A program made the position numbers and the translations under genes. The notes beneath the pieces were generated by a model. It saw only the letters and a program-made list of their open reading frames with translations, did no database searches and was not told the DNA's origin. This document shows positions 6,476 through 14,025 of a stretch of 26,765 bases of DNA, piece by piece. Source of the stretch: Chloroflexota bacterium (GTDB lineage Bacteria > Chloroflexota > Dehalococcoidia > Dehalococcoidales > WRFJ01). The DNA lies in NCBI GenBank assembly GCA_009778865.1, contig WRFJ01000001.1, forward strand, positions 1-26,765, written 5' to 3'. Positions within the stretch are counted from its first letter, which is position 1, and the number at the start of each line of letters is the position of its first letter.

Positions 6476-7601
6476 TATTGATCCCCCGATTAAATATTGC
6501 GCTAAGCCGCATAAGCTGTAGTCGGTGTATTGAAGAAAGATATTATTTTATACGGATTAAGCTGAACCGACTTCATGTGAGAGCGTATATTATGCTCTAA
6601 GTCATTTTCCGAGCGCGGCATGTAACGATTACCCACTCCGCGCTTTAAGTCACTGTTAAGGTATTCTCCGGGGTTGTACTCTGGTGTATACGGCGGCAAG
6701 TAAAATATCTCCAATCTCGGCTTATGCCTTTTAACCCAAGTGGTCGCTTTTTTACTATGATGCACGCGTAGATTATCTAAAACCAAGAATACTTTCTTTT
6801 CGGTGTCTTTTACTAAGCGGCTAAAGAAATCTATAAGCTTATCTGCATTCATATTGTCTTTGTACAGCATAAAGCGCATTTTGCCACTACTGGAAACTGC
6901 TGATAGCATATTGATTTTCATCTTAATTGACTCAGTTTTTAATACGGGAGTGCGCCCGATAGGCGCATATCCCTTAGCGTAATTAGCAGTGTTCTGTATG
7001 CCGGTTTCGTCACCGAAGAATATTTGGGCGTTTTCTCTCTTGGCTTGCTCTTTTATCCCAGGGAACTCCCGTTCTACCCAATCAACTATCTTTTTAGCAT
7101 CCTGCTTGTAAGCTCGTTTTGCCGGACGTTGAACCGAGAATCCCCAACGCAAAAGATAATAACCCAAGGTGCTTAACGGCATTGACATCTTGTATGTCTG
7201 CTCAATGTACTCAGCTATGTTCTTACGCGTCCACATACAACCCTTTAGACGGAGTTGTTCCGGACTTTTGTCTATAATAACACCCCTAACGGCTCTTTCT
7301 TGTTCTATGGTTAAAACTCGGCTGCTGCCAAGTTTGCGTCCGCGCCTTTGAAGCTTAATCCCGGCAAAACCTTCATCTCTGAATTTCTTGATTGTTGACT
7401 CAACATGTCTTCGGCTTACATCCAATATTTGGGCGGTTTCCGCCCCTGTTTTACCTTGTTTTTTCAGCCTGACAATGTTTTTACGAATCTGAAACTGTTC
7501 TTTCGGGCTTAAATGTTTGGCATCCGTTCTTAATTCTTTTTCCATGTTATAAGTGTATCATTTTTTAATCTATTACGCAATATTTATTCGGTATGTCAAT
7601 A
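6476..7601 (-). mobile_element. IS630-family insertion sequence, apparently intact
   Basis: 26-bp imperfect TIRs including the terminal TA (6476-6501 and 7576-7601; 21/26 identical), TA at both ends, a single transposase ORF. Confidence 0.92.
6502..7545 (-). CDS. IS630-family transposase (HTH + DDE_3)
   Basis: N-terminal HTH and winged-helix (WTRKNI...WGFSVQRPAKRA); catalytic triad in FGDETG, VLDNLRVH and YTPEYNPGEY. Confidence 0.95.
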   Translation of the reverse strand: MEKELRTDAKHLSPKEQFQIRKNIVRLKKQGKTGAETAQILDVSRRHVESTIKKFRDEGFAGIKLQRRGRKLGSSRVLTIEQERAVRGVIIDKSPEQLRLKGCMWTRKNIAEYIEQTYKMSMPLSTLGYYLLRWGFSVQRPAKRAYKQDAKKIVDWVEREFPGIKEQAKRENAQIFFGDETGIQNTANYAKGYAPIGRTPVLKTESIKMKINMLSAVSSSGKMRFMLYKDNMNADKLIDFFSRLVKDTEKKVFLVLDNLRVHHSKKATTWVKRHKPRLEIFYLPPYTPEYNPGEYLNSDLKRGVGNRYMPRSENDLEHNIRSHMKSVQLNPYKIISFFNTPTTAYAA

Positions 7602-8830: not shown

Positions 8831-8922
8831 GGGGAGATCGCATAGAGGTCTAGTGCGGGCGCCTGCTAAGCGCTTATCCTGAGATTTCGGGATCGAGGGT
8901 TCGAATCCCTCTCTCTCCGCCA
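8831..8922 (+). tRNA. tRNA-Ser(GCT)
   Basis: Acceptor stem GGGGAGA/TCTCTCC, G discriminator and encoded CCA; anticodon arm GGCGC-CTGCTAA-GCGCT; long variable arm; T arm GAGGG-TTCGAAT-CCCTC. Confidence 0.97.
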
Positions 8923-9921: not shown

Positions 9922-10084
9922 AGTTATATGAGCCTGCGATCTGTATCCGAGAGCACTGCGCAACTAAGGCGACTACTCCTGTCTCCATTGTTCTATTCTA
10001 AAATATGTTGGACTTACACAGAAGATTGACACCACTTGATATTAAGTGCCAAAATTGGAAACATTAATAAAATAAGGTGAATTT

Positions 10085-11323
10085 TTGCTCTCTTTCTATG
10101 AATGGACCATAGGCTGCCAAATGAACCGCGCTGAAAGCTTGCGTTTAAGTGCCCGTTTATTTGAAATGGGATACACACGTGCTTTTAGACCAGAGCAAGC
10201 CGATGTTATTTTATTAAACACTTGCGTAGTACGCCAAAACGCTGAAGACAAAGCAGTAAATAAACTGCAAAACCTCAAAGCTTTAAAGAAAAAATACCCG
10301 GAAAAAACCATTGCTCTCAGCGGTTGCTTAGTAGAAAGCGTAGAAACTACTAAAGAACGTTTCCCTTTTGTAGATGTAATATTTAAAGCTGGAGATTGGC
10401 CGCAGGACTGGCTTAAGAGCGTCTATCCATCCCTACCACTTAAAGCTAATATTTCAGAAGCAGTGACCATTATGCAAGGCTGCAACCAGTTCTGCACCTA
10501 CTGTATCGTACCGTATCGCCGTGGCCGTGAACACTCGCGTACTATAGAAGATATAGAAAATGAAGTGCGTGTTCTGGTAGCGCGCGGTGCTTTGGAAATA
10601 GTACTCTTGGGACAGAATGTAGATGCTTACGGACAAAACTTAAAACCGCGGGTAACATTGGCTGATTTATTATGTAAATTAAATAAAATAGAAGGTTTAA
10701 AACGCCTGCGCTTTCTAACTAGCCACCCCAAAGACGTGGACGATAAATTGATAGCGACTATGGCCAGTCTTGACAAAGTATGCCATCAAATAAGTCTGCC
10801 ATCACAAAGCGGTGACAATGAAATCTTACAAAAAATGCGTCGTGGCTATACTATAGAACAATACTGGACTGTTATCTGTAAACTAAAAGAAGCTATGCCC
10901 GATATAGCTCTATCCAACGATATTATTGTAGGATTCCCAGGTGAAAGTCTAAAAGCTTATCAAAACAGCTATGAACATATTCGAAATGGCCGTTTTGACA
11001 CCGTGCATATTGCTGCTTATTCAACACGCAGCGGCACCATTGCCGCCCGCACTATGACAGATGATGTATTAACAAAAGAAAAAGAGCGCCGCTTAAAAGA
11101 ATTGGAAAACTTACAGCAAAACATCTCTCAAGAAATTAATCAATCACTAGTGGACAGTACACAAGAAGTACTTTTCACTGAACTTAAAAATAATAAGTGG
11201 CAAGGACGCACCAAAAATGATAAACTAGTGTTTGTGAATTGTGACGGTAATCTTATCGGACAAACGCGTATGATACATATTACCTGGAGTGGCGCTTGGT
11301 CGCTTAGCGGTAAAATCGTTTAA
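10085..11323 (+). CDS. miaB: tRNA-2-methylthio-N6-dimethylallyladenosine synthase
   Basis: UPF0004 domain TIGCQMN/LNTCVVR/SGC, radical SAM motif GCNQFCTYC, IIVGFPGE and C-terminal TRAM domain. Confidence 0.95.
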   Translation: MLSFYEWTIGCQMNRAESLRLSARLFEMGYTRAFRPEQADVILLNTCVVRQNAEDKAVNKLQNLKALKKKYPEKTIALSGCLVESVETTKERFPFVDVIFKAGDWPQDWLKSVYPSLPLKANISEAVTIMQGCNQFCTYCIVPYRRGREHSRTIEDIENEVRVLVARGALEIVLLGQNVDAYGQNLKPRVTLADLLCKLNKIEGLKRLRFLTSHPKDVDDKLIATMASLDKVCHQISLPSQSGDNEILQKMRRGYTIEQYWTVICKLKEAMPDIALSNDIIVGFPGESLKAYQNSYEHIRNGRFDTVHIAAYSTRSGTIAARTMTDDVLTKEKERRLKELENLQQNISQEINQSLVDSTQEVLFTELKNNKWQGRTKNDKLVFVNCDGNLIGQTRMIHITWSGAWSLSGKIV

Positions 11324-11344: not shown

Positions 11345-11689
11345 ATGGGAACTCAAGGCTGGGCTATTCTTATAATGCTGGTGGTTTTTGCTTTGGCTTT
11401 TTATTTATTATTGATGCGCCCTCAGCAAAATCAACGCAAAAGGCAAGAAGAAATGATGTTGCAATTTAAACCCGGAGATAAAATTTTCAATACCAGCGGC
11501 ATAATTGGCACTATAGTTAGTATAGACGAAATGACAGTAGTTGTAGAAACTGAAAACGGTGCTGAAATACGCATGCTTAAAGGTGGAATTGCCGGTTATG
11601 TAAATACCATTCCAGGTTTAGCAGAACCACAAGAAGACCAAGATAATGAATCTGCGCATATAGAAAGCGCCGATCAAGAAAATAAATAA
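11345..11689 (+). CDS. yajC: Preprotein translocase subunit YajC
   Basis: Single N-terminal TM helix, RPQQ...KPGDKI..TSGIIG pattern, acidic tail. Confidence 0.9.
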   Translation: MGTQGWAILIMLVVFALAFYLLLMRPQQNQRKRQEEMMLQFKPGDKIFNTSGIIGTIVSIDEMTVVVETENGAEIRMLKGGIAGYVNTIPGLAEPQEDQDNESAHIESADQENK

Positions 11690-11715
11690 TTATCTGAAAC
11701 AAAAAAGGAAAGAAT

Positions 11716-12561
11716 ATGAGTTCTCAAGAATTAGTACAAAAAGCTATTGGTTTGATGATGGAGGAAGAGATTCCTACCAAAGATCTTACTTCGGAAGTGC
11801 TTATACCAGCTAATATGGCTGGTCGTGCCAAAATCATCGCTAGGGATGAATGTATTTTGGCTGGTGGAGAGCTGGCGACTATGATTTATATGCGTCTTGA
11901 CAGTAGCTTAGAGGTTGTGCCGGCCATTTCCGACGGCGAACGCGTTAAACTAGGTGACATCGTTTTGAACTTAAACGGTCGCGTACGTTCTATTTTGCAA
12001 GCCAAAGATATGGTATGTTCTCTTTACGGCCGTCTTTCCGGCATTGCTATGGAAGCTGAAAAATATGTTAAAGCCGTAGAAGGTACCGGCACTGAAATTA
12101 TGGATACTCGTCTTACCGCTCCCGGCATGCGCATGCTGGATAAATATGCCGCCTATGCTGGTGGCTCTCACACTAACCCACCCACTCTTTCTTCGGCTTT
12201 TGTTATCACTAAAAATCATTATTTAGCTTTAAAAGCCAAAAACAAAGGCTTAAAAGAGGCTGTTAAAGAATGTCGTGACTTCTCGACTTCACCTATTAAA
12301 ATCTATATTGAAGTAACTGATGTCACTATGGCCAATGACGCCATAGAAGCCAAGCCTGATTTTATTATTTTCAAAGATATGCTGGATCTACCAGAAATTG
12401 CCGCTTTACAAAAAATTATGCCAGAAACAATTAAGACCCAGTATTATGGCCCACTTAATCTAGAAACCGTGCGCGCTATTGCTAATACCGGCGTTAACCA
12501 AATCGCCGTGCCACAGATAACTACTGAGTTTAGACTGCAGAAATTTGATCTTTCTTTCTAA
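11716..12561 (+). CDS. nadC: NadC (quinolinate phosphoribosyltransferase)-like protein with degenerate active site
   Basis: Full-length two-domain NadC pattern (DLTS, ILAG, RLSGIA, DTR, KYA, GG, NH), but canonical TRKT, HR, KxNH, LDN and SGG motifs are replaced. Confidence 0.75.
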   Translation: MSSQELVQKAIGLMMEEEIPTKDLTSEVLIPANMAGRAKIIARDECILAGGELATMIYMRLDSSLEVVPAISDGERVKLGDIVLNLNGRVRSILQAKDMVCSLYGRLSGIAMEAEKYVKAVEGTGTEIMDTRLTAPGMRMLDKYAAYAGGSHTNPPTLSSAFVITKNHYLALKAKNKGLKEAVKECRDFSTSPIKIYIEVTDVTMANDAIEAKPDFIIFKDMLDLPEIAALQKIMPETIKTQYYGPLNLETVRAIANTGVNQIAVPQITTEFRLQKFDLSF

Positions 12562-12578
12562 AAACAACCTATGATTTA

Positions 12579-12603
12579 AACCCCGCTCATAAAAAGCGGG
12601 GTT
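12579..12603 (+). terminator. Terminator ending the miaB-yajC-nadC-like unit
   Basis: 9-bp GC-rich stem aaccccgct / agcggggtt, 7-nt loop, followed by a T-rich tract. Confidence 0.7.
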
Positions 12604-12704: not shown

Positions 12705-13247
12705 TTGGAAAACGAAAATCTTGTCATCGACCGTGTTAAAAAAGGTGATAAAAGTGCTAGCGGCGAGCTTTACAATGCTTATTTCGACCACATATATCGT
12801 TACCTTTTCCTCAAGCTCAATGACCGCCAAGAAGCCGAAGATATGACTCAAAGCGTATTTATATTGGCTTTAAAAAACATCAATTCCTACCACGAACGCG
12901 ATGGCGCTTGCTTTTCTTCTTGGCTCTACAGAATCGCACATAATCAGTATATTGATGCATTGCGCAAGAAAAATAAGGTTTATCACACTTCAATAGATGA
13001 AGCTTATGATTTATCCAGTAATGAAGTGTCGGCACAAGAAAAGATAGAGAGAAAAGAACAAGTTGCTCATATACTTAAAGCTTTTAAAAACTTAACCGAC
13101 GCACAACAAGAGGTGGTAGCTTTACGTTTTGGCCGCGAGTTGTCTTTGGCGCAAACAGCACAGATTATGGGTAAAAGTGAAGGGGCAATAAAGGCTTTGC
13201 AACGTGCTGCTGTCAAGTCTTTACAAAAAAAGTCACATGAACAATAA
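12705..13247 (+). CDS. ECF-type RNA polymerase sigma-70 factor
   Basis: Region 2 (AEDMTQSVF, FSSWLYRIAHN) and region 4 (LTDAQQEVVALRF...SLAQTAQIMGKSEGAIK); TTG start after RBS ggag. Confidence 0.93.
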   Translation: MENENLVIDRVKKGDKSASGELYNAYFDHIYRYLFLKLNDRQEAEDMTQSVFILALKNINSYHERDGACFSSWLYRIAHNQYIDALRKKNKVYHTSIDEAYDLSSNEVSAQEKIERKEQVAHILKAFKNLTDAQQEVVALRFGRELSLAQTAQIMGKSEGAIKALQRAAVKSLQKKSHEQ

Positions 13248-14025
13248 CTTACAAAACGCTAACGATATTGATCAAGCTTTTGAAGATTGTTTAGATATGC
13301 TAAACAACGGTGCTTCTTTGGAAGATTGCCTTAGCCTTTACCCGCAATATACCGACCAATTGTCGCCTATGCTAAAAACTGCCCGCCTAACACACGATGT
13401 TTACAACGAGATTAAGCCTTTAACTGGCAGCCAAACCCGTATTCAAGTGGCAGTCATGCAAGCTGTCTATCCGCAAAAAAATAATGCCGAAAGCTTTTTC
13501 AGAAAGATGTTTAGGACACCGGCTGTAGTTTTTTCAATTGTCGCTTTATTGATATTTATTGTAGGCGGCAGCGCCTTGGCTGCCATATCGCAAAACACCA
13601 TGCCAGATAATGCACTCTACAGCATCAAGCGCACAAGTGAAAATATAGAGTTGTTCTTCAATTTCACAGATAACGGCAAAGCTAGTCAATCATATAAAAT
13701 GGCTGAACGCCGAGCCGATGAACTAGTTTACGCCATAAGTCATAATGATGCCAAAGCCGCCACCGCCATCTTTAACGACTTCAAAAAATATTATTACATG
13801 CATATGTTATACACTACCGGTGTAAAACCGCAAACATTTGATTACTACAAAATTAATTCTCTAGTCTTAAATACAGCTATGAGGGATTATAATTTAAGGC
13901 TGTATTTAAAGCAAGCACTAGCTGTAGCTAATGTATATTTAAGTTTACAGCGTGACTACAACATGATAGACAGCGCTGCCTTTATCAGTATTACCCATGA
14001 TTTGACAATTATTTTAGCAAATTAA
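13237..14025 (+). CDS. Putative membrane-anchored anti-sigma factor with DUF5667 domain (likely start MNNN at 13237)
   Basis: Overlaps the sigma stop; N-terminal FEDCL...LEDCLSLYP..L.PML; one TM helix; MPDNALYSIKR..E...AERRADE resembling DUF5667. Confidence 0.75.
   Translation: MNNNLQNANDIDQAFEDCLDMLNNGASLEDCLSLYPQYTDQLSPMLKTARLTHDVYNEIKPLTGSQTRIQVAVMQAVYPQKNNAESFFRKMFRTPAVVFSIVALLIFIVGGSALAAISQNTMPDNALYSIKRTSENIELFFNFTDNGKASQSYKMAERRADELVYAISHNDAKAATAIFNDFKKYYYMHMLYTTGVKPQTFDYYKINSLVLNTAMRDYNLRLYLKQALAVANVYLSLQRDYNMIDSAAFISITHDLTIILAN

Follow-up and report, generated by a model that had tools for sequence, protein, structure and literature searches.

Quinolinate phosphoribosyltransferase (QAPRTase; NadC, EC 2.4.2.19) mediates the quinolinate-to-nicotinate mononucleotide (NaMN) step in the de novo synthesis of nicotinamide adenine dinucleotide (NAD), with phosphoribosyl pyrophosphate (PRPP) as its second substrate and CO2 and PPi as by-products. 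The roles of its residues in substrate binding are known in part from the Mycobacterium tuberculosis enzyme (MtQAPRTase), in which five single mutants (R105'A, R139A, R162A, K172A and H175A) showed no detectable activity (Kim et al. 2014, PMC4065032). An orphan nadC, without nadA or nadB, is found in Streptococcus pyogenes and Bordetella, and its product is described as an active enzyme in quinolinate salvage (PMC11452294). A further relative, ModD, is a NadC paralogue of molybdate-transport operons. Neither a catalytically dead NadC nor the valS-linked NadC-like clade that is compared below was found described in the literature searched. The gene considered here, nadC*, lies in a 26,765-nt stretch of DNA (the window; GenBank assembly GCA_009778865.1, contig WRFJ01000001.1, positions 1 to 26,765) from a bacterium of the order Dehalococcoidales (Chloroflexota), and its 281-residue product, P0001, had been described in a first-pass annotation made from the letters alone as a NadC homologue that has lost most of its catalytic residues. 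By descent and fold P0001 is a NadC; by equivalog score, quinolinate-binding set, PRPP-binding set and pathway context it fails to qualify as one. Judged from its sequence, nadC* is probably an exapted derivative of nadC with a function other than that of QAPRTase, either as a pseudoenzyme or as a new enzyme.

The open reading frame (ORF) is intact, and P0001 matches the Pfam domains PF02749 (QRPTase_N, 47.7 bits) and PF01729 (QRPTase_C, 89.4 bits) end to end, in keeping with the full-length homologue first described. Comparison with hidden Markov models (HMMs) of the NCBIfam collection, which the first-pass annotation had proposed as a check, places the protein under the cutoff of three candidate families: it scores 168.6 bits against the TIGR00078 nadC model (263 of 269 model positions covered; equivalog cutoff 198.4), 59.1 bits against the ModD model TIGR01334 (cutoff 178.85) and 23.7 bits against NF005529, the PRK08662-type model of nicotinate phosphoribosyltransferase (NAPRTase; cutoff 378). 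No matching family beyond the NadC type was found in the Pfam and NCBIfam scan of P0001. An AlphaFold2 model of the protein has a predicted local distance difference test (pLDDT) value of 90.4 and a predicted template modelling (pTM) score of 0.85, and its confidence dips at two stretches only, residues 131-140 and 151-160, where the substituted active-site loops lie. Because the model is confident, and because Foldseek places it at template modelling (TM) scores of 0.87-0.91 to solved QAPRTases (1x1o, 7xgm, 1qpr), the two-domain type II phosphoribosyltransferase (PRTase) fold of this family is predicted to be fully preserved in P0001.

The active site is where P0001 departs from its relatives. 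Residues are numbered here after MtQAPRTase (structure 1qpn, in which chain numbering plus one gives the literature numbering), followed by their counterparts in P0001, and the alignments cover 19 order-level relatives, 265 homologues from two database searches and 45 further Dehalococcoidia NadCs. The pair E104-R105', whose arginine is contributed by the partner subunit, is K97-D98 in P0001; K140 is L133, N-H161-R162 is T153-N154-P155, and K172-D173 is T165-K166. The first Glu of the canonical EVEV (81% conserved) is Y197, L-D222-N223 has become F219-K220-D221 (LDN to FKD), E-x-S248-G-G250 has become Q242-x-Y244-G-P246 (SGG to YGP), S-x-G270 has become A264-x-P266 (SVG to AVP), and H274 is T270. 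Kept are R139 (R132), N174-H175 (N167-H168) and E201 (E199), and the NadC core motifs RLSGIA and DTRxTxPGxR are still present. Several of these replacements had been read correctly beforehand, namely TRKT to TRLT (L133), HTNPP (N154, P155) and ITKNH (T165), together with the LDN, SGG and SVG changes, all of which stand in the alignments with 1qpn and the homologues. The reported change of EVE to EVT was a register slip of two residues: E-V-E-V aligns with Y197-I-E199-V, and the equivalent of Glu201 is kept. The changes at E104-R105' and H274, the Asn that is now T153 and the Glu that is now Q242 are additions to the earlier list.

These positions are among the most constant of the family. In 260 canonical NadCs 54 columns reach 90% conservation or more, and P0001 departs from the canonical residue at 21 of these. 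R105, R139 and R162 are present without exception (100%) in the other 265 homologues, where K140, K172 and H161 are conserved at 97-98%; the columns of K140, H161, D222, S248, G250, G270 and H274, every one of them replaced in P0001, are 73-100% conserved, that of G250 holding Gly in 73% and mostly Asn in the rest. Since the replaced columns are near-invariant in these homologues, the pattern in P0001 is far beyond chance, and the other Dehalococcoidia NadCs that were aligned (19 and 45, about 65 in all) are canonical without exception. Of the quinolinate-binding set (Arg105', Arg139, Arg162, Lys172, His175), two of the five are retained, as R132 and H168. Lys140, Glu201, Asp222, Ser248-Gly-Gly250, Gly270 and His274 are taken here, from M. 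tuberculosis, Salmonella and mammalian structures, to be the PRPP- and phosphate-binding set, of which P0001 keeps E199; L133, K220, Y244-G-P246, P266 and T270 stand in place of the others. Three of the five positions at which MtQAPRTase does not tolerate alanine are replaced (R105' by D98, R162 by P155 and K172 by T165), and there are strong grounds to think that QAPRTase activity has been lost in P0001, because the published alanine mutants of the homologous residues are inactive (PMC4065032).

The genome to which the window belongs (G000; 0.92 Mb in 140 contigs, 75.7% complete, 40% GC) is the sole representative of its family, and all 40 of the sampled relatives come from other families of the same order. 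In the named genome collection, relatives of its MiaB protein come without exception from metagenome-assembled genomes of Dehalococcoidales or Dehalococcoidia, on which ground a CPR/Patescibacteria origin, suggested by the genome size of 0.92 Mb, was rejected. DNA of the window was found in termite-gut metagenome runs (three runs from two studies, which may be the source samples); the runs listed are all of DNA, with no RNA run among them. Maximum-likelihood analysis recovers the nadC* clade as a monophyletic group (100/100) whose sister is the canonical NadC of one relative, G022 (97/86). The stem branch leading to the clade measures 2.53 substitutions per site; the median tip is 0.24, and branches inside the clade run from 0.07 to 0.34. 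Pfam matches in G009 and G007, and ORF size with BLAST in G022, show the gene order miaB-yajC-nadB-nadC; the order miaB-yajC-nadC* is found in the window and in the metagenome loci L028, L029 and L031, where yajC and nadC* are separated by only about 10-26 nt, and the 26-nt spacer of the window is the position of nadB in the nearest relatives. From gene order and tree position, nadC* is therefore the positional orthologue and a direct descendant of the Dehalococcoidales nadC, and the loss of nadB from the slot preceded diversification of the clade. The order miaB-yajC-nadC with nadB missing recurs at 13 other Dehalococcoidia loci; 12 of them keep the canonical NadC active-site blocks, and the last (L075), a truncated locus, shows the cap block only. 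The idea that loss of nadB from the locus is diagnostic of a remodelled NadC is weakened by these 13 loci with their 12 canonical proteins, and such loss is insufficient on its own. The TNPP loop of P0001 appears to derive from an 'xxRP' variant seen in G009 (SNRP) and G022 (THRP). The first of these, a complete 1.5-Mb genome from a neighbouring family, encodes a NadC (contig C1; L032:5982-6842, minus strand) that is canonical but for the change of H161 to N in SNRP, of the first Glu of EVEV to T and of SGG to SGN; its block is miaB-yajC-nadB-nadC, and its nadA is elsewhere in the genome.

The pathway that would supply quinolinate is not in evidence. The first-pass annotation had stated that nadA and nadB are not nearby and had called for a search for a second, canonical nadC; profile searches (PF02445, TIGR00551) found neither nadA nor nadB in the window or the 75.7%-complete genome, and no second nadC was found in that genome. 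In the order at large nadA is present in 32 of the 40 relatives, often adjoining nadC. The genome holds genes of salvage, for a fused nicotinamidase-NAPRTase (PncA-PncB), NadD and NadE, and a complete nicotinamide/nicotinate salvage route is predicted from them. The fusion is a 500-residue protein (contig C4:7920-9419; L002:886-2388) of an isochorismatase-like nicotinamidase and an archaeal-type NAPRTase (NF006415, 405 bits); it occurs as a full-length fusion in about 16 order-level relatives and as two adjacent genes in about 8 others. With the PncA/PncB pair thus widespread across the order, salvage is the ancestral condition, and the loss concerns the de novo branch only. In three relatives that are 89-97% complete (G005, G026, G038) neither nadA nor a NadC homologue was found, which suggests that the de novo branch has been completely lost repeatedly in the order; the retention of nadC* is notable because these relatives without nadA are also without nadC, which is what would be expected. 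As a separate observation, a relative that is 95% complete (G025) has a canonical NadC, with nadA not found, and is a possible case of quinolinate salvage.

The remodelled protein is rare and strongly constrained. A search of 5.8 billion proteins yielded P0002-P0004 (66-72% identity) as the sole close relatives, the next being at 39% identity or less; the aligned proteins in that range are all canonical, a separate valS-linked clade excepted. In a profile search of 1.84 billion representatives at 50% identity P0001 itself scored 589 bits and the next match 175 bits, so that the clade is one cluster among these representatives, and no related loci were found with P0001 as query in the named genome collection. 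The orthologous DNA used for the ratio of nonsynonymous to synonymous rates (dN/dS) came from JGI metagenome contigs, at four loci (L028, L029, and L030 with L031) representing three to four further lineages, in all of which the frames are open and the replacement residues are those of P0001. In total the clade counts five sequences from one uncultured family, in 4-5 lineages at 64-92% identity, and up to about 35% protein divergence has left the replacements common and the frames intact. In the least saturated pairs (89-92% amino acid identity, dS about 1.1-1.5) the dN/dS of nadC* is 0.03-0.06, the lowest of six genes in its neighbourhood; values in the same pairs are 0.05-0.06 for ispH, 0.08 for miaB, 0.10 for yajC, 0.08-0.12 for an extracytoplasmic function (ECF) sigma factor gene and 0.15-0.19 for a DUF5667 gene. 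Only these pairs count as evidence, dS being saturated (1.6 to >8) and dN/dS unreliable in pairs at 70% identity. The gene is thus under strong purifying selection and is not decaying, and the comparison of orthologues that had been proposed as a check gave zero frameshifts in the four loci. Thirteen of the 21 replaced positions hold a single residue throughout the clade, and at the remaining 8 variation is conservative only (L/I, S/T/A, K/R, Y/S).

The explanation favoured here, which is speculative and is given an even chance of being right, is that the nadC* product is a non-catalytic, NadC-shaped oligomer, its old pocket either closed as a subunit contact or binding a less anionic ligand, with a role in binding, regulation or scaffolding. 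The lineage would have given up de novo NAD synthesis, with nadB gone from between yajC and nadC and nadA not found, and NaMN would be made instead by salvage through the fused nicotinamidase-NAPRTase, and then used by NadD and NadE. The gene was kept and the former active site rebuilt on both faces, the two-domain fold and core residues being preserved. On the barrel face Leu, Asn, Pro and Thr have taken the place of the cationic binders of quinolinate and PRPP, and Pro that of the glycines in the phosphate loops; on the partner subunit's cap helix Lys-Asp has replaced Glu-Arg. The changes on the two faces are coordinated (ER to KD on the cap, KD to TK and DN to KD on the barrel), and bulky hydrophobic residues are among the replacements (L133, Y197, F219, Y244). 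Deprived of R105', R162, K172, K140 and H161, the two carboxylates of the substrate and the pyrophosphate would lose their cationic partners. In QAPRTase structures Gly250, Gly270 and His274 act in the 5'-phosphate loops, and Pro for the two glycines and Thr for the histidine would alter these loops and make NaMN binding unlikely. The product has most likely lost the ability to bind quinolinate, PRPP and NaMN, and would then not be a PRTase. A permanent subunit contact might be made, for example, by D98' pairing with R132, K166 or K220; alternatively the old pocket, now less cationic and partly hydrophobic, might take a different small ligand. P0001 resembles a pseudoenzyme in being an enzyme homologue without residues essential for that enzyme's catalysis, and in being under purifying selection across the 4-5 lineages (dN/dS 0.03-0.06). 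The earlier proposal that the gene is kept for a role other than that of QAPRTase, rather than decaying, is supported by the HMM scores, by the search for a second nadC, nadA and nadB and by this dN/dS.

A tentative alternative, clearly less probable, is that the remodelled barrel is a new enzyme that catalyses a reaction other than phosphoribosyl transfer from PRPP, or whose substrate is neutral or cationic, with the retained E199, H168, N167 and R132 and the new K166, K220, D221, Y197 and Q267. Consistent with it are replacement residues that stay constant or change conservatively from one member of the clade to another, a dN/dS as low as that of the essential enzyme IspH, the coordinated change on both faces of the pocket and a barrel scaffold that is intact by AlphaFold2 and Foldseek. 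Against these stand the lack of a recognisable catalytic motif (the Pfam and NCBIfam matches are NadC-type only) and of pathway partner genes gained beside nadC*, and L133, Y197, F219 and Y244 with the two Gly-to-Pro changes would suggest a pocket that is filled or rigidified rather than a new anion site. That the rebuilt pocket is a new functional site, be it that of a new enzyme or that of a NadC-derived small-molecule sensor or regulator, is possible, if doubtful. Several observations weigh against the favoured reading of a non-catalytic oligomer built on a remodelled pocket. The conserved polar residues kept or new in the pocket (those just listed) would suit a new catalytic site equally well. 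Invariance of the replaced positions within the clade is at the 60% background of the protein; they are neither hypervariable nor specially constrained, and with conservation no higher than elsewhere in P0001 they can hardly be said to demonstrate a specific new binding site. The miaB-yajC context, being inherited from the nadB-nadC ancestor, gives no clue to a new role. The long stem is partly lineage-wide, since across the same 40 genomes the tip of the window is 3.0 times the median for MiaB and 4.6 times for NadC, and GC content is 40% here compared with 48-59% in relatives. A purely gene-specific acceleration behind the 2.5 substitutions per site of the stem was rejected on this MiaB control, which assigns much of the stem to the lineage as a whole; the gene-specific part of the acceleration amounts to only about 1.5-fold and falls mainly on the catalytic shell. 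Finally, with the genome 75.7% complete, a nadA may have escaped detection, and the loss of nadB is established for its ancestral locus only.

The remaining explanations are much less probable than a non-catalytic oligomer. That P0001 is still a QAPRTase with an unusual site, working in quinolinate salvage, is most unlikely: three of the five residues individually essential in MtQAPRTase are replaced (PMC4065032), as are K140, H161, D222, S248, G250, G270 and H274, and the TIGR00078 score is under the equivalog cutoff, even though equivalents of R139, H175 and E201 are kept and public pipelines label the orthologue P0004 'nicotinate-nucleotide pyrophosphorylase'. The precedent for such a role, a functional orphan NadC, is documented in PMC11452294, which cites Sorci 2013 and Brickman 2017; the S. 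pyogenes NadC (5hup) and other solved QAPRTases are ordinary family members by overall match, as distinct from residue-level inspection. A decaying relic, useless after the loss of nadA and nadB and open in frame by chance, would fit the lost de novo context, the accelerated change on the stem branch and a lineage that is small-genomed, AT-shifted and host-associated. It is very improbable given that frames are intact in all five sequences despite about 35% protein divergence, that dN/dS is the lowest of the six neighbouring genes, that within-clade branches are short (0.07-0.34) after a stem of 2.5, and that start codon, Shine-Dalgarno-like sequence and terminator are preserved. Membership of the ModD family, whose proteins likewise have a NadC fold without some catalytic residues, came into view through an ESM-Atlas feature search that ranks ModD-labelled clusters nearest (score 0.96), and is hardly credible. 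P0001 scores 59 bits against a ModD cutoff of 178.85 and 168.6 against the nadC model, the tree places its clade inside Dehalococcoidales NadC as sister to G022, no mod genes are near nadC*, and the two ModDs examined keep K140, H161, R162 and D222 and so bear a different signature; the ESM-Atlas lead was rejected on HMM score, phylogeny and the signature residues of these two above-cutoff proteins.

The features of the block are collected in Table 1 with other features of the window. MiaB scores 382.9 bits against TIGR01574 (cutoff 355.3) and 518 bits against NF010916, under the cutoff of 606. The ribosome-binding site and terminator noted in the first pass are both recovered, the gaps within the block are 21 and 26 nt, no terminator-like site was found within miaB-yajC-nadC*, and co-transcription of the three genes is plausible from this arrangement, with the hairpin past nadC* as the end of the putative transcript. 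An Rfam scan of the window found no riboswitch near the block, its only match being a tRNA gene. Downstream, the DUF5667 protein is probably the anti-sigma factor of the ECF sigma factor whose gene it overlaps; the pair also follows nadC* in L028 and L030, and the P0002 contig has instead a vcrB-like gene and a reductive-dehalogenase-like gene. An intact IS630-type transposase gene stands between the ybeY/FMN-reductase genes and a large upstream gene.

Table 1. Features of the nadC* block and of the rest of the window (positions in the 26,765-nt stretch)
Feature	Position	Strand	Basis
Intact IS630-type transposase	6502..7545	-	DDE_3 and helix-turn-helix (HTH)
tRNA gene	8831..8919	+	Rfam, 52.7 bits
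Candidate sigma-70-like promoter upstream of miaB (best match, TTGACA-18-CAAAAT with TG)	10026..10055	+	consensus match only
miaB (tRNA-i6A37 methylthiotransferase), first in the miaB-yajC-(nadB)-nadC block	10085..11323	+	UPF0004, Radical_SAM and TRAM; synteny
yajC (preprotein translocase subunit), 21 nt past miaB	11345..11689	+	TIGR00739, 79 bits, above cutoff 44.2
Shine-Dalgarno-like AGGA, 6 nt ahead of ATG	11706..11709	+	sequence
nadC* (P0001; 281-aa NadC-fold protein with predicted remodelled active site)	11716..12561	+	intact ORF, Pfam, NCBIfam, alignments, AlphaFold2 model
Intrinsic-terminator-like hairpin (9-bp stem, 6 GC pairs) with T-rich tail, 18 nt past nadC* stop	12579..12603	+	sequence
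ECF sigma factor, then overlapping DUF5667 protein	12705..14025	+	sigma factor BldN-like, 166 bits, below cutoff

Under its pipeline name, 'nicotinate-nucleotide pyrophosphorylase', a protein such as P0001 would lead metabolic reconstructions to credit the organism wrongly with the quinolinate-to-NaMN step. The locus also offers a clean, datable case in which an enzyme of core metabolism has been retained and remodelled after loss of its pathway, with canonical sisters for comparison, and in which the remodelled gene is constrained as strongly as its essential neighbours. After ModD and the valS-linked clade, the nadC* clade is the third independent lineage of the QAPRTase fold without catalytic residues, and for this reason the scaffold probably has a recurrent second use. 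Should the rebuilt pocket be a new functional site, this clade, ModD and the valS-linked proteins would together mark the fold as one from which non-PRTase proteins arise repeatedly, and nadC* might offer a way into the role of ModD-like proteins. The practical significance is modest, the clade being small.

Compared with canonical NadC (1qpr, 1x1o, 7xgm), P0001 shares descent, genomic slot, length and the arrangement of an N-terminal alpha/beta domain and a C-terminal open barrel; it differs in being without R105', K140, H161, R162, K172, D222, S248/G250, G270 and H274 and in having no nadA or nadB partners. The orphan NadCs of S. pyogenes and Bordetella resemble it in that nadC is kept without nadA and nadB in organisms that otherwise use nicotinate/nicotinamide salvage. 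PMC11452294 reports them as active enzymes, whereas P0001 is without the catalytic residues. ModD (TIGR01334) is alike as a NadC-fold protein that has lost part of its catalytic residues (K172, G270, H274) and is nonetheless kept; it differs in its independent origin, in the residues lost, in the weak HMM score of P0001 against it and in its mod operon context, which is absent here. The two ModDs aligned, from two large Chloroflexota genomes (L116, G146:C95; L117, G282:C14), have K172 replaced by F and GW(K/R) in place of ER105 and are without G270/H274, and their signature columns (TTRKVFP, PHR, LIFxQH, FDKL, AAGG) do not agree with P0001.

The valS-linked NadC-like proteins, of 284 residues (P0067, P0070, P0101, P0115, P0242, P0270-P0278; L115:5821-6675 on an ENA metagenome contig), are about 32-33% identical to P0001, as canonical NadCs are, a comparison made by identity and outside the tree. 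In both contigs examined (P0115, P0276/L115) the start of the gene overlaps the valS stop, and an S-adenosylmethionine (SAM) methyltransferase gene follows. Their site reads DTRAT / NSR / VVTPNH / IEDL / CGK / IEALTS, in which R105, R139 and R162 are kept and K140, H161, K172 (K to T), S248, G270 and H274 are lost, and their TIGR00078 scores of 257-262 bits are above the cutoff, so that they would be annotated as NadC. Like nadC*, the clade is NadC-derived and without catalytic residues; unlike nadC*, it keeps the three arginines, scores above the cutoff and stands in a valS context. K172 is lost in ModD, in the valS-linked clade and in the nadC* clade alike, and the QAPRTase fold seems, from these sequences, to have been repurposed repeatedly.

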